Both the position numbers and the translations under genes were made by a program. Shown here piece after piece: positions 2-57,740 of a stretch of DNA of 64,000 nt. The notes under the pieces were generated by a model. That model was not told where the DNA came from. It ran no database searches and saw only the letters and a program-made list of their open reading frames with translations. Every line of letters begins with the position of its first letter. Position 1 is the stretch's first letter. Source of the DNA: Nemertoderma westbladi (taxonomy: Eukaryota; Animalia; Xenacoelomorpha); contig JAUCBJ010006816.1 of the NCBI GenBank assembly GCA_032718475.1, forward strand, positions 60,162 through 124,161, given 5' to 3'.

Positions 2-3000
2 ACGGCCCACGAAAGAATGCAAACGGTCTTCGGCGAAGACAAGCAGAGCGACCCGGTGGCCATATTAACACCATTCGGGTGGACGCTGAGTGGTCCAATT
101 AAGAGCAAGATACCATTCAGGATGTCGGAGATATCAGGATGCATGTTCGCAGGAACAATGCAGGAAATGGGTGATGAGGGAGCAGAGGAGCAGCTTAAAA
201 GACTGCTCAGACAAGACTTTGAGGGACTGAAAGAGACCGGGGTCGGGACCTCGGTAGAAGACAAACAGGCTCTACGAAGCGTGGAGGAATCGATGACGTG
301 TGATGAGGGGCGGTATACAATAGGAATGGTATGGAAACTACCGAAGATACCGCTACCCGATAATAGAGGGATGGTACTCACGAGACTCCGCAAGCTGAAA
401 CAAACACTAAAACGGAGCCCCGAGAAGAACGAGTACATTCACAAAATGATTAAGAAGTACGTCGAGAAGGGATGGGCCGTGGAGTTACCGGTCGACGAAC
501 CGAACACGGACAGGACATACTACCTGCCACTCCACGTAGCTTTAGACCCAAAGAAAGGTAAACTTAGGATGGTAGTCGATGCATCGGCAAAGACCGACGG
601 AAAGTGCTTAAACGACTACCTACTAGAGGGCCCAAACATATACAATTCGGGCATAGAAGTACTACTTAGATTTAGGAATGGGAAACACGCCTTCACGTGC
701 GACATAGAAGGCATGTTCAACCAAGTCCGTGTAACAGAGGAAGACAGCGACAGTCAACGCTTCTTATGGTATAACGGCGAGGAAGAACCGCCTATAATAC
801 CGGCATATAAGATGGTAGTACAAAACATGGGGGCCAAGTCGTCCTCATTTACGACGACTATGGCAGTAAGAGACACGGTAAAGGGGAAGGAAGATATATA
901 TAGCAGTAGGGCCGTCGATATGATCCGACGCGGCTTCTACGTAGACGACGGTATGGAGTCTGGAAATATGGTTGAGGAGATACTGGAAACAGGGCGCGAG
1001 GTTCGCGACATCCTGAAAGGATCCGGCTTCAACCTGACCAAATTCCAATCCAGTTCAGAAGAATTTATCAAGGCAATAGAGGACAAGAAACCAGAATCGA
1101 CCATGGACAACCCTACAACAGCCAAAGGACAGGACATGGCGAATAAGAGAACACAATCGCAGCAAAAGGCATTGGGAATCGTGTGGGATAGAGGAACAGA
1201 CGAACTGAAGTATCAGCTGAGCCAAGAGGGCGCAGACACCCATACGAAGAGGGGTTATGTATCGTATATAGCAAGGATATACGATCCCCTAGGCCTAGCA
1301 TCCCCATTACTAGTCACGGGGAAACAGATACTCAAGAGAGTATATAAATTGAAGGATGAGTGGGACGTAGAGGTACCAGAGGACATTAAGAAACAGTGGA
1401 GCAAATGGACAGGAGACTTGGAAAGGATGGGAACATACAACATGCCGCGAGTGTATTTCCCGGACGGGAACATGACGAATCTGGACCTACATATGTTCTC
1501 CGACGCGTCGTTAGAGGCATACGGAGCGGCACTCTATTTAGTACAACGAGAGGGGGCTCACAAGCCCAGACTAGCCTTTAGTAAAGCTAAGTCAACGCCG
1601 CCAGATTCAGCATCTGTTCCCAAGTTAGAATTGACAGCTGCGAGACTAGGAGTTAGAGCCACAGCCTACCTAGTGGATACAATTCCCAACATAGTGGAGA
1701 CACACTACTGGACGGACTCCATGGTAGTGCTTGGTTGGCTACACAACGAAAAGACGAGATACCCAATATTCGTCGCGAATAGAGTGGACGAAATAAGGGC
1801 GAGCACAGAACTGGAAAGGTGGCACTACTGCCCAACAGACGAGAACCCAGCGGACTTGCTGTCGAGGGGCGTGGAACGCCACACTTTCTTAAAGAAGGAA
1901 GTATTGTGGCAACATGGGCCACAATTTCTGAGCGATAAAGAGGCCTGGCCGCCAATGAGAAAGGTGGAGCCGGGCTCAGAAGTGGTGTCAGAGGGAGAAG
2001 AGGGAGACTCGGAGGGAGAAGAGATATACTCCCAGATGGTGAGGGAGATTAGGGACGTGCAACCAAAGCAAGAACTACGCGATAACCCGACGGACAAACT
2101 CCTCAGCTACAGTTCTAGTTGGTACAAGACCAAGAAACTAGTGGCGTACTGGAGAGCCTTCGGGAATTTCCTCGCGGGAGTTAATAAGGAGAAGAAAACC
2201 AGGGAAACCATAGATCTGGAAGGAGCAGCCAAGGCAATAATCCGCCATGAACAACGGAAGAACTACGGCGACGAGGTGGAACGTGTCGGCAACCAACAGC
2301 ACCTCCGACGGGACAGCGAGTTGATTACGCTGTCGCCACAACTCAACGAGGATGGGATTCTAGTAATGAATTCTAGGGTGGGATATAACAACAGCATAGT
2401 CGTGCCACCGAAACCCATCATCATTCCCACAGGATCGCCTATAGTCCACCAGATCATATGGGACTCCCACAAATCGATACTGCATGGGGGCACCAACCGA
2501 ACCCTCACAGAGATAAGGAGGACCTATTGGGTCAAACAATTAAGGAAGAAGGTTAAAGCGGTAGTGGGGCAGTGCCAGACCTGCCGACGAGTGAAGAAGG
2601 AACGAGCCGTACAGGAGATGGCGCCACTACCGGCGAGTAGGGTAAGACAGCACGACCCGCCATTTACGCATTGCGGTGTGGACATGTTCGGGCCGATAAA
2701 GATCAAGGTGATGCGACACACGGAGAAACGCTACGGTATTATCTTCGTATGCAACAATACGCGGGCGGTAGGGATAGAACTCGCCCAAGATGCAACCGCA
2801 TCAGCATTCATTAACGCCTTAGAAAGGTTTAGGGACCGCAAAGGTGGGACGATCGCAGTGATATACAGCGACAACGGCACCAACTTTGTGGGCGCAGAGA
2901 GTGAGATGGCAGAAGCCTTGGACATCTTAGAAGGAGAAGAAGTCAGGGCGGCCATGAGAAGACGACAAGTAAAGTGGGAGAGAAGGACGCCGTATGCACC

Positions 3001-3577
3001 ACATACACTAGGATGCTTCGAGAGACTGGTGGGCAGTTCAAAGCGTCTAATGACGAAGTTAATGAACACCCACATGGTCACTGAAGACGTCTTACGGACA
3101 GTACTTGCGAAGTGCGAGGGGATCATTAATAGCAGACCGCTATACCCGGAGAATGATGACCCTGAGTCATTAGACGTGTTGACGCCTAGCCATTTTCTGA
3201 TGGAAAGGCCAGCGACCATCGATATGCGGGGTGTAGACCCAGATGATATACATTCCCGCCAGAGTTGGAAAGTCGCTAAAGCAATAAGCGCAGAGTATTG
3301 GAGGAGGTGGGTAGAAGAATACCTACCCACGCTCCATAAGCGAAGCAAGTGGAGGAAACCGAACAGGGAGTTAAAAGAGGGAGATCTCGTAATCGTCACG
3401 GATGATACTATCATCAACAACCAATGGCGGTTGGCGAGAGTTGTAGGCACCTACTCCGACGAGGACGGAAGAGTCCGATCGGTAGAAGTGCGAATAGGTG
3501 GAAAGATAGGTGCGAAGGACAGAAAAACTTACAGGAGAGCTGTAGGGAAATGCTGTCTTCTAGAAGGGGCACCTTAG
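2..3577 (+). CDS. pol: BEL/Pao Pol polyprotein, C-terminal part (end of protease region, RT, RNase H/Peptidase_A17, integrase, DUF5641)
   Basis: Motifs YYLPLH, LRMVVDAS, CDIEGMFNQV, FYVDD, YDPLG, FSDAS, PKLEL, WTDS, NPADLLSRG, H-x3-H..CQTC, GVDMFGP, SDNGTNF, FERLV and EYLPTL. The frame is open from base 2 with no stops. Confidence 0.96.
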   Translation, partial: TAHERMQTVFGEDKQSDPVAILTPFGWTLSGPIKSKIPFRMSEISGCMFAGTMQEMGDEGAEEQLKRLLRQDFEGLKETGVGTSVEDKQALRSVEESMTCDEGRYTIGMVWKLPKIPLPDNRGMVLTRLRKLKQTLKRSPEKNEYIHKMIKKYVEKGWAVELPVDEPNTDRTYYLPLHVALDPKKGKLRMVVDASAKTDGKCLNDYLLEGPNIYNSGIEVLLRFRNGKHAFTCDIEGMFNQVRVTEEDSDSQRFLWYNGEEEPPIIPAYKMVVQNMGAKSSSFTTTMAVRDTVKGKEDIYSSRAVDMIRRGFYVDDGMESGNMVEEILETGREVRDILKGSGFNLTKFQSSSEEFIKAIEDKKPESTMDNPTTAKGQDMANKRTQSQQKALGIVWDRGTDELKYQLSQEGADTHTKRGYVSYIARIYDPLGLASPLLVTGKQILKRVYKLKDEWDVEVPEDIKKQWSKWTGDLERMGTYNMPRVYFPDGNMTNLDLHMFSDASLEAYGAALYLVQREGAHKPRLAFSKAKSTPPDSASVPKLELTAARLGVRATAYLVDTIPNIVETHYWTDSMVVLGWLHNEKTRYPIFVANRVDEIRASTELERWHYCPTDENPADLLSRGVERHTFLKKEVLWQHGPQFLSDKEAWPPMRKVEPGSEVVSEGEEGDSEGEEIYSQMVREIRDVQPKQELRDNPTDKLLSYSSSWYKTKKLVAYWRAFGNFLAGVNKEKKTRETIDLEGAAKAIIRHEQRKNYGDEVERVGNQQHLRRDSELITLSPQLNEDGILVMNSRVGYNNSIVVPPKPIIIPTGSPIVHQIIWDSHKSILHGGTNRTLTEIRRTYWVKQLRKKVKAVVGQCQTCRRVKKERAVQEMAPLPASRVRQHDPPFTHCGVDMFGPIKIKVMRHTEKRYGIIFVCNNTRAVGIELAQDATASAFINALERFRDRKGGTIAVIYSDNGTNFVGAESEMAEALDILEGEEVRAAMRRRQVKWERRTPYAPHTLGCFERLVGSSKRLMTKLMNTHMVTEDVLRTVLAKCEGIINSRPLYPENDDPESLDVLTPSHFLMERPATIDMRGVDPDDIHSRQSWKVAKAISAEYWRRWVEEYLPTLHKRSKWRKPNRELKEGDLVIVTDDTIINNQWRLARVVGTYSDEDGRVRSVEVRIGGKIGAKDRKTYRRAVGKCCLLEGAP

Positions 3578-3685
3578 AAGTGGAGTTAGTGCGTAGTTTA
3601 GTCGTCCAAGTTTTGGACTGAGGGGGGTGGGATTGAGGGCGAGACGCCCTTCCCACACAAATAAAATAAAAATAAAATAAAAAAT

Positions 3686-4380
3686 AGTTAGTTAGTTAGT
3701 AGGTACGTAGTACCTAGAGTTAGTTAGTTAGTAGGTACGTAGTACCTAGAGTTAGTTAGTTAGTAGGTACGTAGTGCCTAGAGTTAGAGAGTTAGTAGGT
3801 ACGTAGTACCTAGAGTTAGAGAGTTAGTAGGTACGTAGTACCTAGAGTTAGTTAGTTAGTAGGTACGTAGTGCCTAGAGTTAGAGAGTTAGAGGGTACGT
3901 AGTACCGCCAGTTAGAGTTAGAGTTAGAGGGTACGTAGTACCGCTAGTTAGAGTTAGAGAGTTAGTAGGTACGTAGTACCTAGAGTTAGTTAGTTAGTAG
4001 GTACGTAGTACCTAGAGTTAGTTAGTTAGTAGGTACGTAGTGCCTAGAGTTAGAGAGTTAGTAGGTACGTAGTACCTAGAGTTAGAGAGTTAGTAGGTAC
4101 GTAGTGCCTAGAGTTAGAGAGTTAGTAGGTACGTAGTGCCTAGAGTTAGAGAGTTAGTAGGTACGTAGTACCTAGAGTTAGTTAGTTAGTAGGTACGTAG
4201 TGCCTAGAGTTAGAGAGTTAGAGGGTACGTAGTACCGCTAGTTAGAGTTAGAGTTAGAGGGTACGTAGTACCGCCAGTTAGAGTTAGAGTTAGAGGGTAC
4301 GTAGTACCGCTAGTTAGAGTTAGAGTTAGTAGGTACGTAGTACCGTTAGTTAGAGTTAGAGGGTACGCAGTACCATTAGT
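3686..4380 (+). repeat. Tandem array of 21 hairpin units (core TAGGTAC-GTA-GT(A/G)CCTA) with GTTAG/GTTAGA linkers, mostly 32-bp period
   Basis: GGTACG cores counted at about 3702, 3734, 3766 ... 4332, 4362; each core is a 5-7 bp stem with a 3-nt loop. Confidence 0.95.
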
Positions 4381-4869
4381 TAGAAGAGAGAGAGTAAGAG
4401 GTAAAAGGGGTAAATAGGATATAGATATTAGTTAGCAGTAAGTAGAGTTAGTAGCGAGAGGGGGGCATATGAGTACAGCTGGGTAAATCGTGTGGCCACA
4501 CGACGTATACTGCTGTACTGCATAGGCCCACAAAGTAGGCCAGAATATGGATTAGAGAATAGAATAATCCATAGGCAGTAATAGGTAGTAGGACAGTAGA
4601 ATTAAAATAAATAGAACAGGGCTGAAAGTTAGGAAATAGTGGCAACACAAGGGAAGTCGTTCTAGAACATAATAAAAGTAACGGACAGAAATTGTAAATT
4701 AGGCTCATTTACTAGCTTCAAAATTAATTAGGTTAAATTTAGGCTAAAAGGCGCAATTAAGTAGAAAGTAGGCCATTATCGAACCGTACGAAATATCTTA
4801 ATACATCACTCATCTGTATTGCGCCTTGGTAAGGCACCACCCTGCAGGTGAGCGAGTGTAGTGTTCGGA

Positions 4870-7404
4870 ATGGCGAGTAAGTTGATCAGGAAGAGGAAGG
4901 CGGAGTCAGGAGGAAAAGAAATACTGGTGGATTTCACCGAAAGACACCCGGAGGAGAAGACGAGAGGATACTACGAGAAGTTGGAAAGGGGTCACGCGGC
5001 ACGAGCGCTGCAGGACCACTTCCGGGAGATGCACGAGCAGCGGCTGGTCGGGACCTACGGAACGCCGTCGCTGGACAACGCGATCTTCCAACACTTCCAC
5101 TACGTGGTGAAAGGGGACAAGGCGAAGTTCGGGATTCCGAAGTATCCGAGGGAATCACCGAGGAAGGACTGGAAGAGGTTCATAGAGTCCGTCAACAGGG
5201 GAGGATATATGATCCTAGATGACGAGGGAACCGTGGAAGACGAAGCGGGTTCAAGACGAGGAACGGCAGGGTCGGCCAGGACCATACTCCTACATTTGGC
5301 CGCGCCAAATGGGGACATCTTCTTATTCGACCTAGGGACGTATGGGAAGAAGGACGGGCCGAAACTAGACCGATTACCGAAAGCGGTACAAGTCTTAGTA
5401 AGGGAGAAGTCGACGACGAAGGTGGGATCGGCGATTCGCGAGGACGCGGAGAGGATCATCGGTCCGGACGCCACCAACCTCCTGGATATGCAGAAAGTCT
5501 TTATGGCTATGACGGCACCGGATGGATTGGGGGTAGTCGAAAACACAGGCCAATGCGGGGCTGTGGCGATGGGCCAATTATTGGGGCTCGTATGCCACAA
5601 ACCGATGGACTGGGGAAAGTTTAGGGAAGAATACGGGGCAGAACTAGCGAACTCGCTGAAGTGGGGAGCGAGACCGGGAAAGCAGGAGGTATATCAGTTC
5701 CGCAGGGGAGCGATAAAGGTATATCAGAAGCGATATATCCTGCAGGAGGACTGGATGATGATAAGTTTGCTTAACTTATTCATGACCGTGGTTATCGAGA
5801 GGGAACCAGGGGCATTTCTGTTATCGGGATCACCCCTAAGCTACAGGAGAGCCTTTAAAGTGGCCTTTGACGGTCTGGTAGACCACCCAGGGCTGAAGGG
5901 CGAGTCGGTGTACTACAACAGCCGACATCTGGTAGACGGGGAGACAGATACACCGTATCAGAGATGGGAGCAGCTAGAGGCGGACAGACGAGAAGCAAAG
6001 CGACTGGAAGAAGTCGCTAGACGGGAGAGGATAGAAGCAGAGGAGAGGGAAGAGGAGGCCAGGGCACAGAGTTACGGCTTCGAGGAACAGGCGGGCCTAG
6101 ACGAACTTCATTGGACTTCGTCAGGGAGTTCGGGGGAGTCTCTAGGGCGAGAATTGGGATGGACGGTGGGATCGCCGAAACAGTCGACGTCGGGGTTGCA
6201 AACGATGCCCATACCAGCGGGCGCCGAGGGCGACCAACCGCCAAGGAAGCTAAGGGAGCTAGAGGGATGGAGAGCTACGGGCGAGAGCCAAGGCGGGAAG
6301 GGACATAGTGGATCCATCGGGATACCGGGGTTGGAAACACTACCAGAAGAGGAAGACGACGGCGACGAGTTCGGAGAGATGCCGCCCATCGAAAGGATAG
6401 GCCACTCGGACACGGACTGGGTTGGCGGAAGGGTGGTGACGGCCAGTGGGGCGAGGGCCTTCTGGAACAGATCCGGCAAGCGGACCTGGGTGCACGAGAA
6501 CCCGGCGATGGATTTCGCGGGGAGCACCATCAGGTTGGGCGAACAACCGGGGACGGCACCACGGATAGTGTTCGGGGAGACGATGCCCGAGAGGGGCGGA
6601 GAGATCGACGTAAACAGGGAGACCAACGTAGAGAAGTTCGCCTACCAGCGACTCCACAGACCGCGGAGATCGCTCGGGACGAAAGACGAGGTGGGACGGG
6701 AGACATTGGTACTCGGCTGCGACTACTGTGGGAGACAGACCCATCAGGAAAGCAGCTGCCTATACCGGTTCCAACGGGGAACCTTTTGTCTCTACTTTAG
6801 AGAACCAAGCCACAGGATGGGGGCGTGTCCACGGTTGCATAACCGATGTCCAAAGTGCCACTTTCGGGGACACTACGGGCGCGAGTGCGACTGGATGAGC
6901 GACGAGGAGAAGTTCACGAGATTCGAGGAGTGGGCGGACGTCGGGGCCATGACGCGCCAGCGCATGAAGGCCCAAGAATTCAAGTGGGGTTTCTTCCTCA
7001 TAAACCAGGAGACCCACATGGAAATCATAAAGCGAAGGTTACCGTTTACCTATCAAGAGGTAGCAACGGCGGCGTCGTTCGCCGGAGTTATGAACACGCA
7101 ACGGTACCTGGACAGGTGGACACCAGAGAACCGGAGGGAGTTTAGGGATTTCTTGGCGGAACACGTACCAAAGGCAATGAAAATGATCCTATGGGACGCC
7201 ACTCGAGGGAGACAACCGGGCCATTCTGAGGGGCCACCGGCGAAGCGATATCGGGCACTAATAACACCAGCGCCCAAGGAGCCAACGACCGGGATTAGCA
7301 AGGAAGTGGCGGTGAAGGTCCGAAAGCAGAAAGCGGATGATGCCAGAGGAACGGTGATAACCAAGAAACGGGCCAGGGAAGAGGACGTCAGGAGGAACAG
7401 ATAG
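4870..7404 (+). CDS. Extra ORF of BEL-1: DEDDy 3'-5' exonuclease-like domain (WRN/Mut-7/EXD-like), charged helix, disordered linker, CCHC zinc knuckles
   Basis: ExoI ILDDEG; LLHLAAPNGDIFLFDL; LPKAVQVLV..TTKVGSAIRED (ExoII); LLDMQ; ExoIII-like RYILQED; knuckles CDYCGRQTHQESSC and CPKCHFRGHYGREC. ATG at 4870 is in a good context (GGAATGG). The ORF is uninterrupted and has the same purine skew as pol. Confidence 0.8.
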   Translation: MASKLIRKRKAESGGKEILVDFTERHPEEKTRGYYEKLERGHAARALQDHFREMHEQRLVGTYGTPSLDNAIFQHFHYVVKGDKAKFGIPKYPRESPRKDWKRFIESVNRGGYMILDDEGTVEDEAGSRRGTAGSARTILLHLAAPNGDIFLFDLGTYGKKDGPKLDRLPKAVQVLVREKSTTKVGSAIREDAERIIGPDATNLLDMQKVFMAMTAPDGLGVVENTGQCGAVAMGQLLGLVCHKPMDWGKFREEYGAELANSLKWGARPGKQEVYQFRRGAIKVYQKRYILQEDWMMISLLNLFMTVVIEREPGAFLLSGSPLSYRRAFKVAFDGLVDHPGLKGESVYYNSRHLVDGETDTPYQRWEQLEADRREAKRLEEVARRERIEAEEREEEARAQSYGFEEQAGLDELHWTSSGSSGESLGRELGWTVGSPKQSTSGLQTMPIPAGAEGDQPPRKLRELEGWRATGESQGGKGHSGSIGIPGLETLPEEEDDGDEFGEMPPIERIGHSDTDWVGGRVVTASGARAFWNRSGKRTWVHENPAMDFAGSTIRLGEQPGTAPRIVFGETMPERGGEIDVNRETNVEKFAYQRLHRPRRSLGTKDEVGRETLVLGCDYCGRQTHQESSCLYRFQRGTFCLYFREPSHRMGACPRLHNRCPKCHFRGHYGRECDWMSDEEKFTRFEEWADVGAMTRQRMKAQEFKWGFFLINQETHMEIIKRRLPFTYQEVATAASFAGVMNTQRYLDRWTPENRREFRDFLAEHVPKAMKMILWDATRGRQPGHSEGPPAKRYRALITPAPKEPTTGISKEVAVKVRKQKADDARGTVITKKRAREEDVRRNR

Positions 7405-8100
7405 GTTCTCAGAGTCGAGGGAGTGAGACTGAGACGTGGTGTGCCTGGAAGGCGCCGCGTGGAACATACGAACTATTAAGTGTAAATTTAATTAATGCAA
7501 ATAATCATATAAGTGCAATTTGTATGTACGTACGTAGTAATTAGTAATCTAAAATACATACGTTTGGAGTAAGTACTATAGTCATACAACCTTTCTCAAT
7601 TAGCTACTGGGACTGGGGGATAAGTGACTATGGCACTATGGACGAGACAACTGACAATTTCACGCTTCTTGAGTGCGACGGCACGAGAGGGGGGGGAGGT
7701 TCGTCAGGAGAGATAAAATAGTCAAAGTGGAGTTGAGGATCGGAATAAGAGTGCGAAGTGCGGAGAGAGTGCGAACGCAATTCTAGTGTGGGGGGGGGGG
7801 AGAATAAGAGGCTGAGTGAGGGACGAGGAAGTCCGGGGGTATGAGAGAGTTAGGGTGAGAGTAGAGGGGAGATAGGGCGAAAGTGTTGGGGAAACAAAAG
7901 TCGCGTGAAGAGGTGAGCGCGATCGGCCCGACATGAGACGCCAGGCACACAGGGTAGCATTATCATACCCATAGGGGGCGGCCTGGAAAGCCGGCTCCAA
8001 GAGAAAAGAATTCCACCCCACACCCGATACTAGATCGGGATCCAGCGGGATTGTAGCGCACTTTTTGGTTGATGCTATCTTCTTACCGGGAAGATAGCAT

Positions 8101-8109
8101 GGGGGGGAG
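8101..8109 (+). other. Polypurine tract (PPT) of BEL-1
   Basis: GGGGGGGAG immediately before TGTTAG (LTR start). Confidence 0.85.
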
Positions 8110-8656
8110 TGTTAGCTTATTCAATCCCGCTAACACCCCATAAAGTTATAAGCCGATAAGCAATATTGGGAGCCACGAGATTGGGCAATTAACCAACTCG
8201 TGCCATCCCAATAAGAGTGGGAAGGAAGCACACAATAGAGGGTCAGGGGCCAAACCCCTAACCCAGAGAGAACAGGTGGAGTGAACGGGAACACTCCACG
8301 GGGCGCCAACAAGGGTAACAACCAATCAGAGGGGGGGCAAGGCATCGATTGAGTAGCAATAAGGCCACCGTGCAATATAACCAATAACCTATTAATCAGT
8401 GATTCAGTTATCTCAGTGCAGCAGTGCTAGCGTAGGTTGGTATTGTACTTTAGTTTAGTTAGGGGATCACGGGACTTTAGTTACCGTATCCCGCCTTGTA
8501 CACATTATATCTATATCTATATCCTATGCCCTATTATTATTATACACCGAACTTCAGAACTCAGTTACTTTATTTCATCCTTATACATGGCGGGGATGCG
8601 TGGACTAAATTACCACACCGGATAAATCGGGATCCCTCCTGGATCCCGTCACAACA
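8110..8656 (+). repeat. 3' LTR of BEL-1 (547 bp, TGTT...AACA)
   Basis: Follows the PPT and has inverted termini TGTT/AACA. Contains CCAATCA ~8322, TATA-like AATATAA ~8374 and TCAGT Inr-like motifs ~8396/8404. Host BEL-2A gag resumes at 8657. Confidence 0.85.
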
Positions 8657-11600
8657 CATATTTAAGCGATGGGTCCCATCACATAGCGCACATTTCGGTT
8701 TGATGTTACTCACCTTACTCTGAGTCACATTGTGTACACTTGCTTTTTCTTCGGGCTTTCTCACCTGAATTCTCTTGGGAGACGTAGGAGGAGTTTTTCT
8801 TACCTGTTCTCTCCTGTCATTTGTTCGAGACTTGAATTTACTTACCTGATCTTTAGGCATTTTATTTACGTAATAAGATCTATCAGTGTCTTTCCTGCTA
8901 TCTTCTCCTTGAGAAGTCTGGCTTTCGCCATCGTCTGTATAACACACTGGTGTTACTTTTCTCCTAGAGACGGGTTTTTCACTTACCTTGTTTTCCGGTG
9001 TCTTCTCTCTGGACAGTTTCAGGAGCTGTAATTTCACTTCTCCATCTAGGAATGACATGAGATCAGCCATGGTAGGGTCTCGTCGTTGTTGTTCCATCAT
9101 ATATAGCACTTTCTTATCCCAGCGTGTACCTACTCCACCCTTCGGTAAAGTAGAAGCCACTGCCCTAATAACCATAGCATTCTGATACTCATGAGACTTA
9201 CCTAGCCAATCTAATTGTCTGCAGATCTCCTGAATCTCATCGGAAAACTCGATAATTCTGCTGCTAATAAACTTTCGGGGCGCTACCAACTTTGCATACA
9301 AATACCCAGCTATGTTATTCCTATTACCATTCCTGATGTTTAGTGTATCCCAAACTTGTCTTAATCCGTCTGGATGTCCAATAAACTTTAACGCCATTAA
9401 CTTGGGAGATCCTTCCAAGCACTCGATGAGGAATCTAAGTTTCTCTCCATTAGATAGCACAGAGTTCTGTATGTTATCTTTGTAATATTCATTAAAAGGT
9501 AACCATTTCATCTCATCTCCATTGAATTTGACGATCTCTCCCACCTTTACCGCTTGCCGGGCTTCGGTTCTAGCCATTTGACGCGTAAAACTTTCTTGGG
9601 CCATCGTGTTATTTAATATCGAGTTATCGGTATATAAATTTCTCGGATTATGATCCGGTCTATAGGGAATATCATTATCAACAGGTCTATAATTACCCTT
9701 AATAGGGTTCACTATAGGAGTTTCTACCTCGCTAGCAGTATAGATGCGTGTAGGCTCCACACCTTGCGCATGAGATACTTCAGACCTAACAGGTTGACAC
9801 ATTGTTACAGGGGGTGGTGGTATACCCCTTTGTGTATTTACTAATTTATCGCGTTCTAGCGCGATACTTTGCTGCACTTCTTGCAACTCTAACCTACTTT
9901 CCCTTACTGTGCCCTTGAATTGCTGAACGGTCTCCTGCATCTGTCCGAGCAGGAGATCCATCCCCCGTCATCTCTCATCCACCCATTCAACCGCCGAAGC
10001 GGGATTCGCCAACGCTGTAGCGGGCGGACGAGGGACAACGGGCGACAAATCATGAATATTTCGCTCGGAGTCCAGGGCATGAGCTGTCTCATGGGCTGTT
10101 CTGCTGGGCACAGGTAGCTTAGTGCTGTGCAAAGGGAATTGAGAGGTAGGTTCAGGGAGTACAGGTGTCTCTACGACCGAAAGGGTGGCTTCGGGAACAG
10201 ACCTAACTATTTCGGGCTCATCTACTATAGTAGGGAGTCTCTCTATTGTAATTATTTGGTCTGTGGGTTCTGTACTACCTAAGTTGGTGTTATTTAGTTG
10301 CCTTCTAACAGCTGGAGGCAAATCAGGCAATTTTTGACGGTGGGATGTTCTTTTACGTCTGCTTAGGCGAGATCGATTTCCTTTGCCTTCAGTATCGGTG
10401 GTATCGCCTTCCTCAGATGATGTATAACCCTGTCTTTTGGGAGTAGATCGATTCATCATCTGCATATTACTAGCTGTTAACTGTTTACTGAAGTCGTCTT
10501 GCTTCTCTTGAAGATTTTCCAACTCCAGTTGGGCGATCTCTTCAGCCGCTCTCCGTTCTGCTTCCGCCACCGCTGCCGCTTTTGCCTCTGCCGCTGCCGC
10601 TTTTGCCTCTGCCGCTGCTTCTGCTGCTGCCGCTTTTGCCTCTGCCGCTGCTTCTGCTGCTGCCGCTTTTGCCTCTGCCGCTGCTCCTGCCAAGGTCGCT
10701 TTTCTTTCTGCCTCTGCCACTGCTGCTATCTTTCTGTCTTCTATACGTTTTTTCCTTACTTGTCCTTCTTGGTCTCTAGCGATGCGGAGTTGTTCATCGA
10801 ATTTAGCTTGGTTCGCCGCTAACCTATCCACATCAATTGCATCCAACACACGCTGGGCTCCTTCACTATTAGGGCTAAGTCCATCTAGCCTTCTCCTCAA
10901 CTCTTCATCTCCCAAAAAACGCTGATAGTCTGACAGATAGATGTCAATGGCATCCCTCTTATGCGGTTTCTCTGCCGTCGCTTCACTTTCCACTTGGGAA
11001 AAAGTAGCGTCCGTTGATTCTCCATGGGTTGAGCGCTCCTCCAGCTGAGCTTTCCACTGAGCTGTTCCTTGAACCTGGCGACTCACCCGTTGAAACCAAG
11101 TCTTTACGGCAACTTGCAACGACGTGTCTTGTCTTCTTTTAGAAGCCTCTTCAAAGGCTGATAATATTAGCCTGATTCGCAGAATTCTTTCTCTAACTTG
11201 ATAAAGCAGTTGTCCCTGCTCTTGAGGTCCTTTAGGTTGTTGAAACAGTTGTTTTTCTACTCGCTCCATAGAGCTGAAGAATCCCTGTGCGTATCCGGCT
11301 GCGGACCTCTTCCACACAGCTGGATCGATGGTTTCCTTGGCTACTCCCATCCGGTGTATGTCTTCCCAGGCAGCTTCTGATAAATCAAACGGGAGTCCGG
11401 GTCCGGGGAAGTTCCATTGTTTCTCCACCGCAATCAATAACCTAGTGAGTACGGCTGCAGGAAGGATGAGAAGGGGATCTGAATAAGCCGCATCCATCAT
11501 CCTTGCTCCGCGTTCGGGTGTCAGTTCTACCGTATCTTCACTACTGGAGCTGACGGGCCGCTGAGAAATAAGTTCTTGGCTCGCGGGTGGTTGCTGTTCC

Positions 11601-11815
11601 GCTGCTTCTTGGTCCCGCTTGACCTGAGCTCGAGTGCCTATGATAGACCTACGATGTTGGACCAGCCTAGGTTCTGTTATTACTACTGGAGGGATGACCT
11701 TCCTCACAGTGGGAGGTGAACTGAACTTAGGACTAGACGGTTCTACACCTCTATCTGAGTCGCAGATAGTTACATCTAATAAACTGTCTGACAGGTTCTG
11801 TTTAGTATCAGACAT
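8657..11815 (-). pseudogene. gag: BEL-2A gag (long N-terminal extension, Ala/Glu/Lys helix, DUF1759, first CCHC knuckle); in-frame TGA at 9968-9970, 90-bp deletion vs copy B, cut by BEL-1
   Basis: ORFs 9968-11827 and 8570-9961 share a frame; DUF1759-type KFNGDEMKWLPF..LSNGEKLRFL; CALCDGTHRLNMC; copy B reads CGG at the stop position. Confidence 0.9.
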
Positions 11816-12322
11816 GTTGGTTTGCACAGTTGAATGCCTACTGCTATATTACAGTCTAAGCAAGTCTAGTAATTCAGAATTAACTGCTAGCCTAGTAATT
11901 AATTACCGATACTGCTACTCAGTGTAGCGTGATATATAATATATTAGTATACCGGTATGCTTATAGTATATATAAGTATTATTACAGACTAGTTTATCAC
12001 AGAATACCGGTAGGTAATTTTAGCACAAATATATAAATATATAATAGGCCTATCGTGAATACCGGTATGCAGTTTACACCTATAATGTATATATATAAGT
12101 ATAATTACAGACTAGAATTAATTACAGAATACCGGTATGATTTCAGCACAAGTATATAAATATATAATAGGCCTATCGTAAATACCGGTATATCAATTAT
12201 TTTAGAATAATTGGATTTCTGAATTTACTAAGATATAATATAAAACTAAAAGTAATATTGTAATATACGATACATTGAACATTGCGTTAGAGTATGCTAC
12301 GGCAAAGGCTACTGACCGGGCC

Positions 12323-15300
12323 CTAATCCCCAAAGAGTCCACCAGGGGATGGGCCAGCAGTTGCCAGGACAGACGCCGCGTTGCCCACCAGAATGGCCAT
12401 GACGATACGCTGAAGTAGAAACCTGTGGGAGCGCGGCTCATGAGTCATGGTGTGGAGACGGGACCCAATCTCCTGGAGGAAGGAGGACGTCTCCGGACCG
12501 GGGCGCCCCAGGGTCTCGAACGCAACAGGGTGAAATATATGACCCCGCTCCATCACCTCCGCATATGTCAAGTTCTTTCCCTGTTCGGCACCCTCTGCAG
12601 CACGACCCCCTGCAATTAGCGTCTGTTGGCGGTGACTAGGGGCAAGGGGGTCAACCACTGTGGCATCCCAGGTTAGCATTCGACCCTGGGACCAAGGCAC
12701 AAGTGTCACCCCGTCTACACGCTTCCCGTCATTGCGGCAGAGTCCTGATGGTTCCAGAATGGAGGGAACCCCACAGCTGACCAATGCCCGTCTCACAATA
12801 TCATTAACCATGGTGTGGCGAGGGAACCGGCCTGCGCTCCTCCGGCATGAGAGACCATGTAGACCATTGGACGCTACTGGATTGCCACAACGGTCGCAGA
12901 TGTGGGGCTCTACCACCTTTTCTCCAAGGCGAATGGCGATGGCAATTCGAAACTGCGCATCGCTTAGTTTTAGCCCCAGAGCTGCACTAGGAAGAGCATC
13001 AAGCCAGCAGCCAGCGGTCGGGTGATCGAGGGAGTTCAGTCGAGCAAGGTCGAGAGTAGAAGCTACAAGACGGAGGGTGGCGAGGCTTTCTTGATGGATG
13101 GGCGCCATCCACACCCTCTGTGTTGACACAGTGGGTGGTGCTGAGTCGGGGGGGAGTGACGCATTCCGTATGGTCATGGCTAATTCCCGTGCTGGGCTCG
13201 GCATCCCTGCGGAAGGGTACAAGCGGTTTGAAAGGGTTGAACATGCAGCCGCAGAAGCCAGGAAGGCAGAGGGTGCGAGCTGCACTGCTGATCCCAAACC
13301 AAGACCGCCAACCCGTGCTGGTAGGCAAGCCTGGGCCCATGCTGGGTCACCAATTTCTGTATTGGCAACCACTTGAAGGGCACCACGAAGCACTCGATCA
13401 TAGTCCCTAAGAAGGGTGGGGAACCTAAAACATGGGGCAGCCCTAAGGAAGTACATCAGCCTGGGTATGGCAAATGAGTTCCTCAGGAGGAAAAAGCCGT
13501 GATGTGCGTCAAGGAGTGGAAGCCGGCTAACTAGAGTGGTGAGGTCACCGACCTTGGCTGTGAGGCAAGAGGCGATGGCAGCTTCTCCGATGGGGGCGCC
13601 AAGAATGGTCAACTGATCCAGCGGCGGGCATGGGATGCCGGCACAGATAGCATCGAACTCCATCTGGATCTCGGCACGTGATTCTTCTGTCTCGGGCCCC
13701 AAGAAAAACAACTCGCTCTTTGTGGGGTTAATCATCAGCCCAAGTTTCCTCCCATCATCGATCAACCTTGAGAGGTCCCTCAGCACAACCCGATGGTCAT
13801 CAGCTAGGTTTCCATCGTCCAGGTACCAGACATTGAAAGCCGATTCCAATGCCTGGATGGTTGAGTTTTCTGTGTCTCCGAACAGCTGCGGGCCATCTGT
13901 GTCCCCTTGTTGTACGCCCTCGTCAGAGAGTAGGACTTGGTCACCATTAAGGAGAAAGGTTGCCTCCCCATAGGCAGCAAGGGTGTAATTATAAATCGCG
14001 GGATGAGCAGCATGGACAGTCTCCAGCATTGAGTCTCGGCGGATTGAGTTGAATGCATTACTAAAATCTATTTTTAGCAACACGAAACCCGCCGGATTTT
14101 CCCCATTGACCAGCGCCCTTACTGCGTGGGCAGCCCCCTCCGCACCTAACTTGCAGCCAATACCCAGCTGAACCGATCCATATGACTCTGTCCGTTTCTC
14201 TGCAGCTAAGGTTCCAGAGAACTTGCCACACAAACGACGAAGGGTAACCCCAACAGCTATGGGACGGATTCCCGGCCCACTCTTCTTGAATGCAAACAAG
14301 TTTGCCCCAAAGAATATAGGCCGGATAGCAGTTGGCACCTTGCCCGCCATGGTAACATCAACGAACCTTGCTAGGGATGACAGGAGGCGTTCTCCAGCTT
14401 CGCCATTTGTTGGGGTGACAAGATCCTTATATATCTGAGGCCGCACCCCATCTGGGCCTCCAGCACTCCCGCTAGGGAAGGATGAGATCAACCTCCGGAG
14501 TATCGTGGGGGTACAAGGGCGAGCAGACGAGGTGACAGGCGGTGGTGGGTCTCTTCTATCATCTGGTCTGGCAGGGTGCTTTCCCCGTAGCAACTCTAGT
14601 GTCTCCGGTGTGTTGGGGGCAATGGCGTTCTTCGAGGAAGCTAACCGTATAGCTCCCTTGATGTCACCATCCTCTATCTTCTCTGCCACCATGGTAGCCA
14701 GTCTAACCGACTCCTCCTGGGGCCTCTGGCAATAGGGGCCAGATGTCCGAAATGGTGGTGTTGGAAAACCTGAACCTGAATTAACCATGGCACGGAAATC
14801 GGCGATCCTTTGGTTAATGAGGGAAGCAAGAGATCGCTGGTGTTTCCTCCCCCCTCGACTTGGCGCTGGGATACAGAAGTCGCCAACTATGAGTAGCCAG
14901 ATCCATTTATGGACTCTCATCGGTTCGTCTGCAATAGCAGTAAACAACTCAGCGAACAGGTCAGCTAAGTTGGTCCTCGATGCCTTTGGGACATGTCTCA
15001 GCTGCCTTGTTCGCCACCCTCGTACTATATTCAAAATATCCCACTCTGATAATTCCCCTTGGGAATGTCTGATGGGGGGACCTTGCAAGGAGGCTGAAGC
15101 ATCTGGCTGGACACTAGATCCCAGGCACCGGTTGGCAGGTGGGCCATGTGTGCGCAGAGTCCCATTGGCTTTTATTCCGAAGACCCTCAAACATACTGGA
15201 CACGTGCCAGCTCCAGACATTGGAGGCCCTGACGAGCCGACCCCAGACCCTTGAGTGTCCGACACACCAATACCAACAGACACCGAAGGGACCGACACAC

Positions 15301-17836
15301 TGATAACAGACACCGAAGGAAGTGACCCACCGACTCCAGACACTTGAGGGGCCGACTCATCGACTCCAGATACTGAAGGGACTGACTCACCGACTCCAGA
15401 CACTGAAGGAACCAATTCACCGACACCATAGTCTTGAGGAACCGACTCAACAACCCCAGACACTCGAGGGACCGACTCACTGACTCCAGACAATGAAGGA
15501 ACCGACCCACGGACTCCAGACACTTGAGGGGCCGACTCACCGACTCCAGATACTGAAGGGACTGACTCACCGACTCCAGACACATAAGGAACCAACTCAC
15601 CGACCCCATACTCTTGAGGAACCGACTCACCAACCCTAGACACTTGAGGAACCGACTCACCGACTCCAGACAATGAAGGAACCGATCCACCGATTCCAGA
15701 TACTTGAGGGGCCGACTCACCGACTCCAGAGACTAAACGGACAGACTCACCAACCCCTAACACCGAAGGAACAGACTCACCGACTCCAGAGACTCGAGGA
15801 ACCGACTCACCGACACGAGACATTTGAGGAGCCGACTCAACGACTCTAGACACTGAACGGACAGATTCACCGAATCCAGATACTGAGCGGAATGACTCAC
15901 CGACCCCAGACCCCTGAGGAACCGACTCACCGACACGAGACATTTGAGGAGCCGACTCACCGACTCTAGACACTGAACGGACAGATTCACCGAATCCAGA
16001 TACTGAAGGAACAGACTCACCGACTACAGGCACTGAAGAGACAGAGTCACCAACCCCAAACACCGAAGGAACCGGCTCACCGACTCCAGACACTGGAGGA
16101 ACCGACTCATCGACTCCAGACACTGAGCGGAATGACTCACCGACCCCAGAAGCCTGAGGAACCGACTCACCGACGCTAGACATTTGAGGAGCCGACTTAC
16201 CGACTCCAGACACTGAACGGACAGACTCACCGAAACCAGATACTGAAGGAACAGAGTCACCGACTACAGGCACTGAAGAGACAGACTCCCCAACCTCAAA
16301 CACCGAAGGAACCGGCTCACCGACTCCAGACACTGGAGGAACCGACTCGCCGACCCCAGACACCGGAACAACCGACTCACTGGATGCAGACACTGAAGGA
16401 GCCGGCTCACCGACTGCAGGCACGACTCCATACACCTGAGAAACCAAGTCACCGACTCTAGATACAGCGCCGCCTGACTCACCGACCCCAGACATTTGAG
16501 GAACCGGCTCACCAACCCCACACACTTGAGGAACCGACTCACCGAATCCATACATTTCAGAAACCGACTCACCGACTCTAGACACTAATCGAACTGACTC
16601 TCTGACCCCAGACACATGAGGAACCGACTCGCCGACTCCAGACACTGAAGGGACCGACTCACCGACCCCAGACACTTGAGGAACCGACTCACCGAATCCA
16701 TACATTTCAGAAACCGACTCACCGACTCTAGACACTAAACGAACTGACTCTCTGACCCCAGACACATGAGGAACCGACTCGCCGACTCCAGACACTGAAG
16801 GGACCGCCTCACCGGCCCCAGACACGTGAGGATCCGTCTCACCAACCCCACACACTTGAGGAACCGATTCACCGAATCCATACATTTCAGAAACCGACTC
16901 ACCGACTCTAGACACTAAACGAACTGACTCACTGACCCCAGACACATGAGGAACCGACTCGCCGACTCCAGAGACTGAAAGAACCGACTCACCAGCTCCA
17001 GACACTGAAGGGACCGAGTCACCGATCCCGGACTCTTGAGGAACCGACTCACTAGCTCCAGAAACTTGTGGAACTGACTCACCGACTCCAAACAATTGAG
17101 AAACCGACACACCGATTCCAGACTCTTGAGGAACGGACTCATCAACCCCATACACTTGAGTAACCAACTTACCAACCACGGACACCGAAGGAACCGACTC
17201 ACCCACTCCAGACAGTGAAGGAACTGACTTACCAACCCCGTTCACCGAAGGAACCGACTCACCTACTCCAGACAGCTGAGGGACCGACTCCCCAACCCCA
17301 GGCACTTGAGGAACCGACTCACCGATTCCATACACTTGAGAAACCGACTCACCGACTCTAGACACTGAACTGACTGACCCACCGCCCCCAGACACTTGAG
17401 GAACCGACTCGCCGACTCCAGACACTGAAGGAACCGACTCACCAACCCCAGACACCGAAGGAACCGACTCACCTACTCCAGACACTAGGGGAACCGACTC
17501 ACCAACCCCAGATGCCGAAGGGACCGACTCACCGACGCCAGAAACTGGAAGTACCGAACCAACTTCCGACACTCCCTCACCCAAGGAAGATGACTGATAA
17601 GCTATTGCTTCACTACCACGACGGGCCCTGTCAAGTATTGCTGTTGCCCGAGCCTGTGCCTCGCCTGGGAACAGATCTCTCCCTACCTTCGTGGGAGATG
17701 TTATCCAGGAAGAGTTAGAATGGGAAACCGCCCTCATTGTAGTTGAAGGAGAAGAGCTCGTGACAACGCTATCAAACCCATCTAACGTCCTGTCCGAATC
17801 TAGAAGAGTCTCGTCTAGGATATATCCATCTCCCGC
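12323..17836 (-). CDS. CRE-like single ORF: 10-aa repeat region, C2HC zinc finger, RT, CCHC + PD-(D/E)xK restriction-like endonuclease
   Basis: Motifs IRPIAVG..LRRL, QLGIG..GAE, KIDFSNAFN, GVQQGD, WYLDDG, GGLGL, CDRC..HGLSC, RH..VND, RVDG..WDATV, FETLG. The frame stays open for 33 codons upstream of ATG 17737, up to the 5' junction. Confidence 0.92.
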   Translation of the reverse strand, partial: AGDGYILDETLLDSDRTLDGFDSVVTSSSPSTTMRAVSHSNSSWITSPTKVGRDLFPGEAQARATAILDRARRGSEAIAYQSSSLGEGVSEVGSVLPVSGVGESVPSASGVGESVPLVSGVGESVPSVSGVGESVPSVSGVGESVPQVSGGGGSVSSVSRVGESVSQVYGIGESVPQVPGVGESVPQLSGVGESVPSVNGVGKSVPSLSGVGESVPSVSVVGKLVTQVYGVDESVPQESGIGVSVSQLFGVGESVPQVSGASESVPQESGIGDSVPSVSGAGESVLSVSGVGESVPHVSGVSESVRLVSRVGESVSEMYGFGESVPQVCGVGETDPHVSGAGEAVPSVSGVGESVPHVSGVRESVRLVSRVGESVSEMYGFGESVPQVSGVGESVPSVSGVGESVPHVSGVRESVRLVSRVGESVSEMYGFGESVPQVCGVGEPVPQMSGVGESGGAVSRVGDLVSQVYGVVPAVGEPAPSVSASSESVVPVSGVGESVPPVSGVGEPVPSVFEVGESVSSVPVVGDSVPSVSGFGESVRSVSGVGKSAPQMSSVGESVPQASGVGESFRSVSGVDESVPPVSGVGEPVPSVFGVGDSVSSVPVVGESVPSVSGFGESVRSVSRVGESAPQMSRVGESVPQGSGVGESFRSVSGFGESVRSVSRVVESAPQMSRVGESVPRVSGVGESVPSVLGVGESVRLVSGVGESAPQVSGIGGSVPSLSGVGESVPQVSRVGESVPQEYGVGELVPYVSGVGESVPSVSGVGESAPQVSGVRGSVPSLSGVSESVPRVSGVVESVPQDYGVGELVPSVSGVGESVPSVSGVDESAPQVSGVGGSLPSVSVISVSVPSVSVGIGVSDTQGSGVGSSGPPMSGAGTCPVCLRVFGIKANGTLRTHGPPANRCLGSSVQPDASASLQGPPIRHSQGELSEWDILNIVRGWRTRQLRHVPKASRTNLADLFAELFTAIADEPMRVHKWIWLLIVGDFCIPAPSRGGRKHQRSLASLINQRIADFRAMVNSGSGFPTPPFRTSGPYCQRPQEESVRLATMVAEKIEDGDIKGAIRLASSKNAIAPNTPETLELLRGKHPARPDDRRDPPPPVTSSARPCTPTILRRLISSFPSGSAGGPDGVRPQIYKDLVTPTNGEAGERLLSSLARFVDVTMAGKVPTAIRPIFFGANLFAFKKSGPGIRPIAVGVTLRRLCGKFSGTLAAEKRTESYGSVQLGIGCKLGAEGAAHAVRALVNGENPAGFVLLKIDFSNAFNSIRRDSMLETVHAAHPAIYNYTLAAYGEATFLLNGDQVLLSDEGVQQGDTDGPQLFGDTENSTIQALESAFNVWYLDDGNLADDHRVVLRDLSRLIDDGRKLGLMINPTKSELFFLGPETEESRAEIQMEFDAICAGIPCPPLDQLTILGAPIGEAAIASCLTAKVGDLTTLVSRLPLLDAHHGFFLLRNSFAIPRLMYFLRAAPCFRFPTLLRDYDRVLRGALQVVANTEIGDPAWAQACLPARVGGLGLGSAVQLAPSAFLASAAACSTLSNRLYPSAGMPSPARELAMTIRNASLPPDSAPPTVSTQRVWMAPIHQESLATLRLVASTLDLARLNSLDHPTAGCWLDALPSAALGLKLSDAQFRIAIAIRLGEKVVEPHICDRCGNPVASNGLHGLSCRRSAGRFPRHTMVNDIVRRALVSCGVPSILEPSGLCRNDGKRVDGVTLVPWSQGRMLTWDATVVDPLAPSHRQQTLIAGGRAAEGAEQGKNLTYAEVMERGHIFHPVAFETLGRPGPETSSFLQEIGSRLHTMTHEPRSHRFLLQRIVMAILVGNAASVLATAGPSPGGLFGD
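15200..17570 (-). repeat. Coding 30-bp minisatellite in the CRE ORF (VSGVGESVPx, roughly 75-80 units)
   Basis: 30-bp period ACCGACTCACCGACTCCAGACACTGAAGGA on the + strand; 10-aa periodicity in the protein. Confidence 0.95.
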
Positions 17837-20165
17837 TTTCTGAATTTTAAGGGTTACTTGGTTACTTTAACTTACTTTATTACCGTTATTTGAGCAGTAG
17901 TCCAACTGATATTGAGACCTAATTGCTATATGGCAGGCCTACTATTTATAAATCGTTTGAGTTGATTTATAATATATATATACCCGTTTAATGGGTTTTG
18001 TCAATGTTGAAATAAATGTTATTATTTCTGGGGGAGTCACTACACATAAGCTATGCGCTCTTAGTGGAGTGCTACTTGTTAGACACTAAAACAAATAATT
18101 CTAATTTACCTAAGTTACTTAATACTACAAATTACGTACAATTCGGGTTGAGATTACAATCTCTAAATAAACACAAAAAATTTAATTACAAATACACAAA
18201 TACAAATTTTTAGGGTAATTTTACAAGAAGTCTACTAACCAGCCTAACAAAGGGTTAGAATATCTGGTTATTACAACGGACAGGTTACTACGGTATTTGA
18301 AAATAATAAGTAGTAGTAAATATACTGCGCTGTCCAGATAGGAAAATACCACCGCCTGACGACCTATAACCGTATCGCTATAGGTACTACGTTATGTATC
18401 ACGGAGTGTTCCTACCCAGAAGTTAATTACCGAGGTCTACCAGAACCAACGTGCCTATTAACCACTTTACAACACAAATACACTGCCTACACACTAATCA
18501 CCTTCGGAAAGTACTGTACACTAAACCCTAAATTAGGTACAAGTACTTGTATGACAAATAATTAGTAGTTAAAAATACTTGAACAGCTAAAAGAACCACG
18601 GCATCTGCTGGAGTGACCGGTGCACAAAATCACCAGTCTTTACCTACGCCAAGCAGCCCGTATAGTACCGGGGTTAGTTTAACTATAACGGTATGTATAA
18701 CAAACACAATTACTGTAGGAACAAACTTGGGGAATATGAATGTTGCGAATAATCGCATAAACTCTGAATAATAAATATTACGCTACGCGTACAGACTATT
18801 CAAACAAAATGCAGACCAAATACTGACAGACTACTATCAAGCCTAAACAAACTACGGTATATGTAGACTCCGAAATGGTTAAGTAGCATGCGTTCTAACC
18901 CAGTAGTACGACTTATTCTTTAGATGGGGGTTTACCTTACAGCAATGGCTGCCCCTACTTCCTAACCGTTCTTTATCGGACAGATGCTTTACACACACCG
19001 AAATTTCCTCAAACCCAACAACAGCCAGACAACTATCCAGCCTACAAATTATCTAAATAAAATTATACGCTACCCGTACAGACTACACAAACAAAGTACA
19101 GACCAAACGCTGGCGGACTCCTATCAAGCCTAAATAAACCACAGGACATGCAGACTCCGAAATGGTTAAGTAGTATGCGTTCTAACCCAGTAGTACGACT
19201 TATTCTTTAGATGGGGGTTTACCTTACAGCAATGGCTGCCCCTACTTCCTAACCGTTCTTTATCGGACATACACTCTACATGCACTGCAATCCGTTCAGC
19301 CCTAATCAACAGTTAGCCAACAGTCAAGCCTACAAATAATCCGTACAATCTGCACAGGCTTGGACGCCTTCTGCTCAATACTGGCCTACAAATAAATAAA
19401 ACTGACAGAAATAAGTAAGCTCCAAAAGAAACAAGGGGTGTACAGTCCCTAATCTCTTAAACAGCCTACCGGTATACAATACCACAATCGAATAATACTG
19501 CTGTACCTGTACCGTAAGTAGGTACCGGTCCGGATGATCAGGCAGTCAGGCCTACTGGTTACCGGTCGACCGGTACTTTCTACTAGATTGCTTACACAGC
19601 AATCCAGAAGCAATATCTGTTATTGTTTGCGCTTTTGAAGACCTTTGACAGTTTAACCTGCCAAAATTAGAATGTCTTTTGGATGATAGATAGTCTTTAG
19701 CTTATGACGAGTATTTGGTACACTACATTAGCCGAAGCCAGTCTATGCGCAATCATTCACCCGTTGGATATACCCGGGAGACTGAGTTCGGAGCTTAATG
19801 ATTGATGGTGTAAGCCTACTGTATTATTCGACTGATCGTAATATATAATCTCTGACAAATATTATTCACTTTCGGGAAATATTAACAGTTCCTTTAGGAC
19901 GTGGCGTTCTAAATATGTAAACAGAGTTATGACTTAAACTAGTCACAACGAAAAGGCTATAGATTAACGTATATGGCGCATTCTTTAGGAGATGCTTTGT
20001 TATCAGTTACAATCATACACAATGCTGCACAATACTGCACACTAATCTGCCGACCTTCACTAAGTTTGGTCATGTATAAAGAGAGCAACAGACAATTTAT
20101 GTTGGGCATATGAAATAGCATTAGATTCACTTCAAACCACTCAACATATGTCGCAATTGTTTATC

Positions 20166-53700: not shown

Positions 53701-54240
53701 TACAGCTCCTAAAGCAGTCCAGAGAGAAGATACCGGAAAACAAGGTAAGTGAGAAACCCGTTTCTAGGAGAAAGGTAACACCAGTGTGTTATACAGACGA
53801 CGGTGAAAGCCAGACTTCTCAATGAGAGGATAGCGGGAAAGACACTGAAAGATCTTATTATGTCAATAAAACACCTAAAGAACAGGTAAGTAAATTCAAG
53901 TCTCGAACCAATGACAGGAGAGAACAGGTAAGAAAAACTCCTCCTACGTCCCCCAAGAGAATTCAGGTGAAAAGGCCCGAAGAAAGAACGAGTGTGCACA
54001 ATGTTATTCAAAATAAGGTAAGTAGCATCAAACCGAAATGTGCGCTATGTGACGGGACCCACCGTTTGAATATGTGTGATGAATTCCTGAAGAAATCATT
54101 AACGGAGAGACGGGAAGTCATGTGGGATAAGCGGTTGTGTTATAATTGCCTCAGACAAGGACACCAACGGCGAACCTGTTACTCCGACACAAGGTGTGCA
54201 AAGTGCGGTGTGAAACATCATCTTGTTGCACACTGAATTC
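50763..54240 (+). pseudogene. gag: BEL-2B gag (stops at 51000-51002 and 53823-53825; DUF1759; three CCHC knuckles)
   Basis: CALCDGTHRLNMC, LCYNCLRQGHQRRTC, CAKCGVKHH; copy A has sense codons at the stop positions. Confidence 0.9.
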
Positions 54241-57680: not shown

Positions 57681-57740
57681 TGGCCGGTATGGTCAGTTGA
57701 ACTAACGTGGGAGTTAATTCACATAAGATTAACAACCGTA

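Follow-up and report, generated by a model that had tools for sequence, protein, structure and literature searches.

A BEL/Pao retrotransposon lineage with a predicted DEDDy exonuclease-fold and zinc-knuckle gene in the env position

DEDDy-type genes are known from retroelements of bdelloid rotifers, in which the Juno and Vesta long terminal repeat (LTR) retrotransposons and the Athena/Terminon elements are described as carrying a DEDDy open reading frame (ORF), ORF3 (PMC5408684; PMC6431247). Third genes of BEL/Pao elements, in turn, are described as env-like: the ICTV profile of the Belpaoviridae lists only env-like third genes (PMC8742986), and an env-like third ORF is described for Roo and mosquito elements (PMC13524379). 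Among cellular proteins, the knuckles of Trypanosoma brucei RNase D (TbRND) bind RNA and promote trimming, and its pairing of an exonuclease (exo) domain with CCHC knuckles has been called very unusual (PMC7797062; PDB 7C42/7C45). Here we describe a BEL/Pao element in a 64,000-nt stretch of the Nemertoderma westbladi genome (contig JAUCBJ010006816.1, positions 60,162 to 124,161 of the forward strand; "the window" below) in which pol is separated from the 3' LTR by an additional gene, ORF2, with a predicted DEDDy exonuclease fold and three zinc knuckles. Judged by its sequence and relatives, ORF2 is an accessory gene that is not env, is under selection and runs through a whole lineage of BEL/Pao elements. 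We propose, as a plausible reading that falls a little short of probable, that its protein binds the element's own RNA and trims it where the active site is kept. The features of the element, all on the plus strand and numbered by position in the window, are as follows.

2-3577, plus strand: BEL/Pao pol (reverse transcriptase [RT]-RNase H-integrase-DUF5641), one open frame that is open at the window's 5' edge, called from Pfam domains and database matches.
4870-7404, plus strand: ORF2, an uninterrupted frame for an 844-amino-acid (aa) accessory protein, in the env position.
5080-5904 (about aa 71-345), plus strand: predicted DnaQ/DEDDy exonuclease-fold domain, from profile, structure model and residue pattern.
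5953-6096 (aa 362-409), plus strand: predicted long charged helix, from the alignment-based model.
6718-6990, plus strand: triple CCHC knuckle domain (aa 617-673) followed by a helical extension, also conserved, that reaches about aa 707, from alignment and motif.
About 8100-8108, plus strand: polypurine tract (PPT), from the sequence.
8109-8656 (end 8653 or 8656), plus strand: 3' LTR, TG...CA, about 548 bp, starting with TG at 8109.

The studied element belongs to BEL/Pao (Belpaoviridae). Its pol matches the Pfam families Pao peptidase (PF05380; E 2.7e-40), integrase H2C2, rve and DUF5641; its best database matches are BEL pols of anemone, fish, barnacle, snail and urchin at 32-39% identity (most at 35-39%), and PF05380 was present in all 120 pol matches listed. 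The RT-RNase H-integrase order, the Pao-specific domains, LTRs within 0.2-1.2 kb, a primer-binding site after the 5' LTR and a PPT before the 3' LTR are likewise traits of the Belpaoviridae. A 704-nt region separates the ORF2 stop from the PPT. The 3' LTR abuts a gag knuckle, interrupted by the studied element, that belongs to a different, minus-strand BEL element, and because the target shares three bases, the end of the LTR is ambiguous (8653 or 8656). The 5' LTR and gag of this copy fall outside the window; evidence on LTRs and target duplication comes from a relative, L072, described below. An initial annotation made from the letters alone had read an intact pol and an uninterrupted 844-aa frame ahead of the PPT and 3' LTR, and this layout was borne out, with 2-3577 forming one frame and no stops in 4870-7404. 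Its statement that ORF2 is not env also held: no transmembrane (TM) segment or signal peptide was evident in ORF2 (best 19-residue hydropathy, 1.3; basic N terminus), and no fusogen fold appeared among the structure matches.

The fold of ORF2 became visible at the level of the protein family. ORF2 had no match in Pfam, phmmer with the exo domain alone had none in PDB, word-based homolog searches with the ORF2 protein or with the family alignment returned none, and a single-sequence fold was of low quality (predicted local distance difference test, 34). Against 1.84 billion representative proteins, phmmer with ORF2 gave 54 matches at E <= 0.001; none of the 20 family proteins looked up carried an informative name. 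The query and 25 of the longer matches made a 26-sequence alignment with two conserved blocks, one exo-like and the other comprising the triple CCHC array and helical extension, with a variable linker between them. The best match of this family profile was TbRND (7c45; E 1.4e-8), over both domains, followed by EXD2 (2e-7), Egalitarian and WRN. In the model built from the alignment, confidence was good over most of the two domains but not over the linker, which after the charged helix and up to aa 612 (about 6705) has low model confidence and is weakly constrained. Structure searches used the whole model, and their match lists were filled by the exo domain, with Nibbler EXO at Z 14.0 (root mean square deviation 3.6, 203 aligned), RRP6 at 13.4, TbRND at 12.9, WRN at 12.8 and EXD1 at 12.0; Foldseek agreed on a DEDDy fold, and the top matches of the structure searches include Nibbler, EXD1 and RICE1. 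We therefore treat the DnaQ/DEDDy fold of the N-terminal domain, which had been suggested from residue pattern and is supported by profile, model and Foldseek, as established at the level of prediction, and the donor family as not established; since the top Z scores are tied across DEDDy families, Nibbler is not singled out. The residues originally numbered from 4861 as D120, E122, D195, Y292 and E296 are D117, E119, D192, Y289 and E293 when counted from the ATG. The window protein has the ExoI D-x-E, the ExoII D and the ExoIII Tyr, and has Glu at the last catalytic position, where the ExoIII pattern is Y-x3-D.

In the C-terminal domain, two intact CX2CX4HX4C knuckles start at aa 617 and 660, and a middle one (aa 640-653) lacks its second Cys, so that the earlier description of two intact knuckles and one degenerate knuckle is accurate for this copy. 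Of 116 related loci, 99 have Cys in the column of the missing residue, and sister contigs covering the codon all differ from the window copy in both DNA runs; on this sequence comparison, the degenerate knuckle is a lesion of the window copy.

Relatives were sought with a codon motif for the third knuckle, which detected at least 120 loci in metagenomes; the knuckle motif had no matches in viral contigs. Among the 120 motif loci listed, 119 match the family profile, and there are 109 clusters at 95% identity; L040 was rejected as a family member, being a chance motif match in bacterial-looking DNA. Flanks were obtained for 80 listed loci, the exo domain was visible in 55 of these, and 39 had at least 1.5 kb of upstream sequence. 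A BEL pol lies directly upstream on the same strand in 33 of these 39. The six loci without a pol call comprise three from a subfamily with a long ORF, in which the member L044 does have pol, then L017, and two that are one locus. L072 is a complete element, with 774-bp TG...CA LTRs that are 96% identical, a 5-bp target duplication, a primer-binding-site-like site, gag-pol, ORF2 and a PPT, and in 29 of the 32 relatives in which a PPT was called, PPT plus TG follow 87-711 nt past the ORF2 stop. ORF2 thus belongs to the element, as the initial annotation had supposed, and did not insert there independently.

Some of these loci depart from the common layout. In the subfamily formed by L004, L044, L045 and L079, ORF2 is 1,550 aa long and is overlapped by a second frame, the C terminus of which is conserved among the four; in L044 this second frame has 711 aa and no Pfam match. 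L017 is repeat bounded and apparently internally deleted, with no pol match and with an ORF2 that is kept but stop interrupted. The freshwater locus L007 (= L027, L061, L084) has an exo-plus-knuckle ORF whose frame ends inside the knuckle domain, with no pol in ~2 kb upstream, and is a decayed or stand-alone copy.

The window pol is only 29-35% identical to the pols of ORF2-bearing loci, whereas its best database matches reach 32-39%. In a 56-row pol tree built from unbroken ORF stretches, a single branch sets off the 27 metagenome pols, and the pol of the window lies apart on a long unstarred branch. Holding all 28 ORF2-bearing pols together gave a likelihood 7.9 higher than that of the free tree (approximately unbiased test, P = 0.62); a single origin is allowed by this test, not shown by it. 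Distances between pols and between exo domains are correlated (rho = 0.86, n = 23), which is consistent with coinheritance of ORF2 and pol, though kin share both.

Constraint on ORF2 was assessed within the window family and among relatives. Two DNA runs show high repetition of the window family (the summed depth is not a copy number), and the 40 best-supported variant rows from each run, out of 619 and 52, gave 63 distinct variants inside ORF2. Among these best-supported rows, the exo domain has 22 synonymous variants and 1 nonsynonymous variant (expected synonymous fraction, 0.23-0.34), and the linker has 13 and 10, respectively (exo versus linker, Fisher P = 0.004); there were no stops. Among relatives, the ratio of nonsynonymous to synonymous substitution rates (dN/dS) in the exo domain was 0.03-0.50 in 32 of 34 pairs with more than 55% aa identity, the other 2 being saturated. 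The dN/dS comparison proposed in the initial annotation was thus not neutral, and the variants and pairs, read as sequence evidence, show purifying selection on both ORF2 domains. With a DEDD fold matched, ORF2 found beside pol in relatives and constraint seen, the case for an accessory gene of the element stands.

The catalytic residues, in contrast to the fold and knuckles, are not retained throughout. Across 66 exo domains, the five catalytic positions carry D in 40, E in 42, D in 33 (E in 7), Y in 39, and D in 34 or E in 21. Of 64 members (one duplicate and one shortened row dropped from the 66), 35 retain four acidic residues, 3 retain three and 26 at most two, and starred branches of the tree force at least three changes of catalytic state. 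The exo tree has a dead clade of 21 rows, the counterpart of a pol clade of 12-13 rows that still has intact ORFs; the measurable dead-member pairs have exo dN/dS values of 0.03-0.28, and their knuckles are kept. Fold and knuckles are, on these sequences, retained where catalytic residues are lost. Because 26 of 64 members have lost catalytic residues while the measurable dead pairs stay constrained, nuclease activity is not the universal function of the family. The idea that ORF2 is an element-encoded RNA-binding nuclease therefore survives in its predicted fold and knuckles and does not survive as a description of every member; these pseudonuclease clades, recognized from sequence, go beyond what had been noted earlier. 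The window protein groups in the exo tree with four others also ending in Glu. Separately, L009, L064 and L065 have His in place of the ExoIII Tyr and keep all four acidic residues.

We favor a model in which ORF2 is a separate gene, probably translated from a subgenomic mRNA. In 8 of 30 elements, acceptor-like splice sites precede ORF2, a hint that this mRNA may be spliced. A run presumed to be RNA gives a depth of 2-5 in parts and was left out of the evidence. By analogy with TbRND, the knuckles would hold single-stranded RNA and the exo pocket would grip an RNA 3' end. The protein could then escort or protect genomic RNA, contributing to its stability, export or routing to packaging, much as CERV, produced from a spliced mRNA, is described as exporting Cer1 genomic RNA in Caenorhabditis elegans (PMC10309623). 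Trimming of RNA 3' ends would be an optional extra where the active site is kept, as in the window copy. Since catalysis has been lost under continued constraint, binding would be the shared function; RNA binding is the likely core role of ORF2, with trimming optional.

Several points weigh against this model. The data fit the element's own RNA and host small RNAs alike as ligand. The knuckle-domain match to TbRND is weak (E 0.004), and DEDDy folds act on DNA too, with WRN and the Pol I exo domain matching the ORF2 model at Z 12-13. Glu at the last catalytic position, found in 21 of the 66 exo domains including the four nearest exo relatives of the window protein, is a clade trait, and because of it the predicted nuclease activity of the window protein is uncertain. 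The spacer of the window copy itself has no acceptor signal (P = 0.84). Finally, choosing dN/dS pairs at more than 55% aa identity biases the values low, and the variant tables cover best-supported rows only.

Host small RNAs as ligand lead to a different account, in which the ORF2 protein binds host PIWI-interacting RNAs (piRNAs), small interfering RNAs or Argonaute complexes, trimming them when active and, when dead, sequestering them or mimicking Nibbler, EXD1 or Mut-7. Mut-7, Nibbler and RICE1 have roles in small-RNA trimming. Nibbler, EXD1 and RICE1 are among the top fold matches, the window family is highly repeated in both DNA runs, loss of catalysis would fit a decoy role, and inactive DEDD derivatives are described as acting in piRNA biogenesis (PMC5408684). 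However, the tied Z scores do not single out Nibbler, and codivergence with pol together with strong constraint gives no sign of an arms race, so that we regard such anti-silencing as possible and, on balance, doubtful. The bolder statement that an old, widespread and as yet undescribed BEL/Pao lineage of aquatic animals encodes an RNase D/Nibbler-like knuckle suppressor of piRNA defense, acting as trimmer or dead decoy according to clade, we consider unlikely.

A role in reverse transcription, with the knuckles bringing the ORF2 protein into the particle and the exo domain proofreading or trimming cDNA or primer ends, is improbable. WRN and Pol I 3'-5' exo domains do share the fold, CCHC knuckles resemble nucleocapsid fingers, and 35 of 64 members retain all four acidic positions, but ORF2 is encoded apart from the Pol polyprotein, and catalysis was lost in the pol clade of 12-13 elements with intact ORFs.

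The initial annotation had also joined ORF2 to an adjacent hairpin array, one of two structured features in the noncoding parts of the element.

3686-4374, plus strand: 32-bp minisatellite of about 21 units with 5-7 bp palindromic stems (tandem-repeat call: period 32, 20.9 copies).
8067-8101, plus strand: predicted 13-bp hairpin directly before the PPT, from folding; enriched in relatives.

The array and its predicted hairpins exist, with a 5-7 bp stem and 3-nt loop in 21 of 21 units, but they are not part of the accessory module. The spacer between pol and ORF2 is 1,292 nt in the window versus 0-774 nt in relatives; a tandem repeat occurs in the spacer of only 2 of 36 relatives, neither resembling the array, and the array core is in none of the 120 listed loci. 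Among 300 controls built as tandem repeats of a shuffled unit, 35% (global) and 17% (local) fold equally well, so that the array's z score of -6.7 against whole-region shuffles overstates its folding. Because relatives lack the array and its folding lies within the shuffled-unit controls, we dropped it from the module: it is real and confined to the window family. That ORF2 recognizes the array, as Rev does RRE, is accordingly very unlikely; a 5-bp stem is kept in 21 of 21 units, with a G-U-compatible change in 6, and the array lies beside ORF2, but outer-stem variants are not compensatory and the units are recent duplicates, not independent. The hairpin before the PPT is a better shared cis candidate: 13 of 33 elements have z <= -2 at this place, as against 1 of 26 control windows taken 150 nt upstream. 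These hairpins are unrelated in sequence between families, and they could be common to BEL elements in general or serve ORF2 as a cis element. A folding z score of -7.1 for the 3' untranslated region was not trusted, as local windows gave -3 to -4, as in some pol and ORF2 windows.

That ORF2 is a functionless captured passenger or a separate insertion is scarcely credible and largely refuted already, since purifying selection, fixed position and pol codivergence outweigh the freshwater locus L007, which has the ORF without pol in ~2 kb upstream.

The rest of the window holds other repeats and one host exon. A second BEL family has two copies, at 8657-12226 (minus strand) and 50339-57449 (plus strand), which are 87-88% identical; the minus-strand copy is interrupted at its gag knuckle by the studied element, and the plus-strand copy is uninterrupted there, its truncated pol being followed by Gypsy-like ORFs at 57663-60824. 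In a 1,847-aa open frame at 12323-17866 (minus strand), about 75 copies of a 30-bp tandem repeat (15277-17547) are translated in frame and precede a non-LTR RT, and a LINE-type ORF with APE endonuclease and RT lies at 61050-63998 (minus strand). An exon of a cyclic-nucleotide-gated channel alpha subunit is at 33961-34632 (minus strand) and marks the host as an animal. A 63-bp minisatellite occupies 35259-37212 (31 copies) and 40377-40785 (6 copies), and its 567-aa frame is likely a repeat artifact.

While BEL/Pao third ORFs have been described as env-like, ORF2 is a non-env gene with a recognizable RNA-enzyme fold, present at more than 100 metagenome loci. Sister clades that differ in whether the active site is kept form a natural experiment, and therefore the role of retrotransposon DEDDy ORFs, a question raised in rotifers, becomes approachable by biochemistry. 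ORF2 may bring to light a strategy by which animal LTR elements escort RNA or counter silencing.

With respect to known systems, the literature search found no BEL/Pao exonuclease ORF; the slash spelling was unmatched in it, Repbase, GyDB and subscription journals lay outside it, and Repbase and supplements may hold members. "Exonuclease" occurs 0 times in the accessible text of a BEL/Pao survey (PMC3118150), an envelope survey (PMC13524379) and the Kuafuortervirus paper (PMC11673190), and unnamed BEL clades are reported from plankton metagenomes (PMC5029228). The studied lineage resembles Belpaoviridae with an env-like ORF in having gag-pol and a third ORF between LTRs, a PPT and a length of about 9-10 kb (L072), and differs in that the third ORF is a predicted soluble nuclease-fold/zinc protein and not a glycoprotein. 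Like the rotifer DEDDy ORF3, ORF2 is an additional frame that lies downstream of pol, where env would be, and has no TM segment. The rotifer elements, in the portions of those reports available, are not described as BEL/Pao, have the motif DEED, and carry no mention of a triple knuckle, only of a Cys-His-Cys motif in Vesta2/5. The rotifer ORF3s were judged recent acquisitions with no clear departure from neutrality, unlike the constrained ORF2 (PMC5408684; PMC6431247). The likeness to CERV, an LTR-element accessory protein acting on its own RNA, is a functional analogy alone, with no homology claimed. With Nibbler, EXD1, WRN, RRP6 and Egalitarian, ORF2 shares the fold (Z 11.8-14.0; EXD2, 8.5) and the ExoI/II/III positions at 10-18% identity, EXD2 included, and none is singled out as donor; the exonuclease-homology domain of Egalitarian is described as contacting RNA stem-loops, including the I-factor signal (PMC13186709). 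TbRND, the best profile match for both domains, shares with ORF2 a DEDDy exo domain followed by CCHC knuckles. It is cellular, with four knuckles and a short linker, whereas ORF2 has three knuckles, a linker of ~270 aa and an extra conserved helical motif, is mobile and is often catalytically dead. ORF2 may work like TbRND, but we do not class it as a TbRND-type RNase D.
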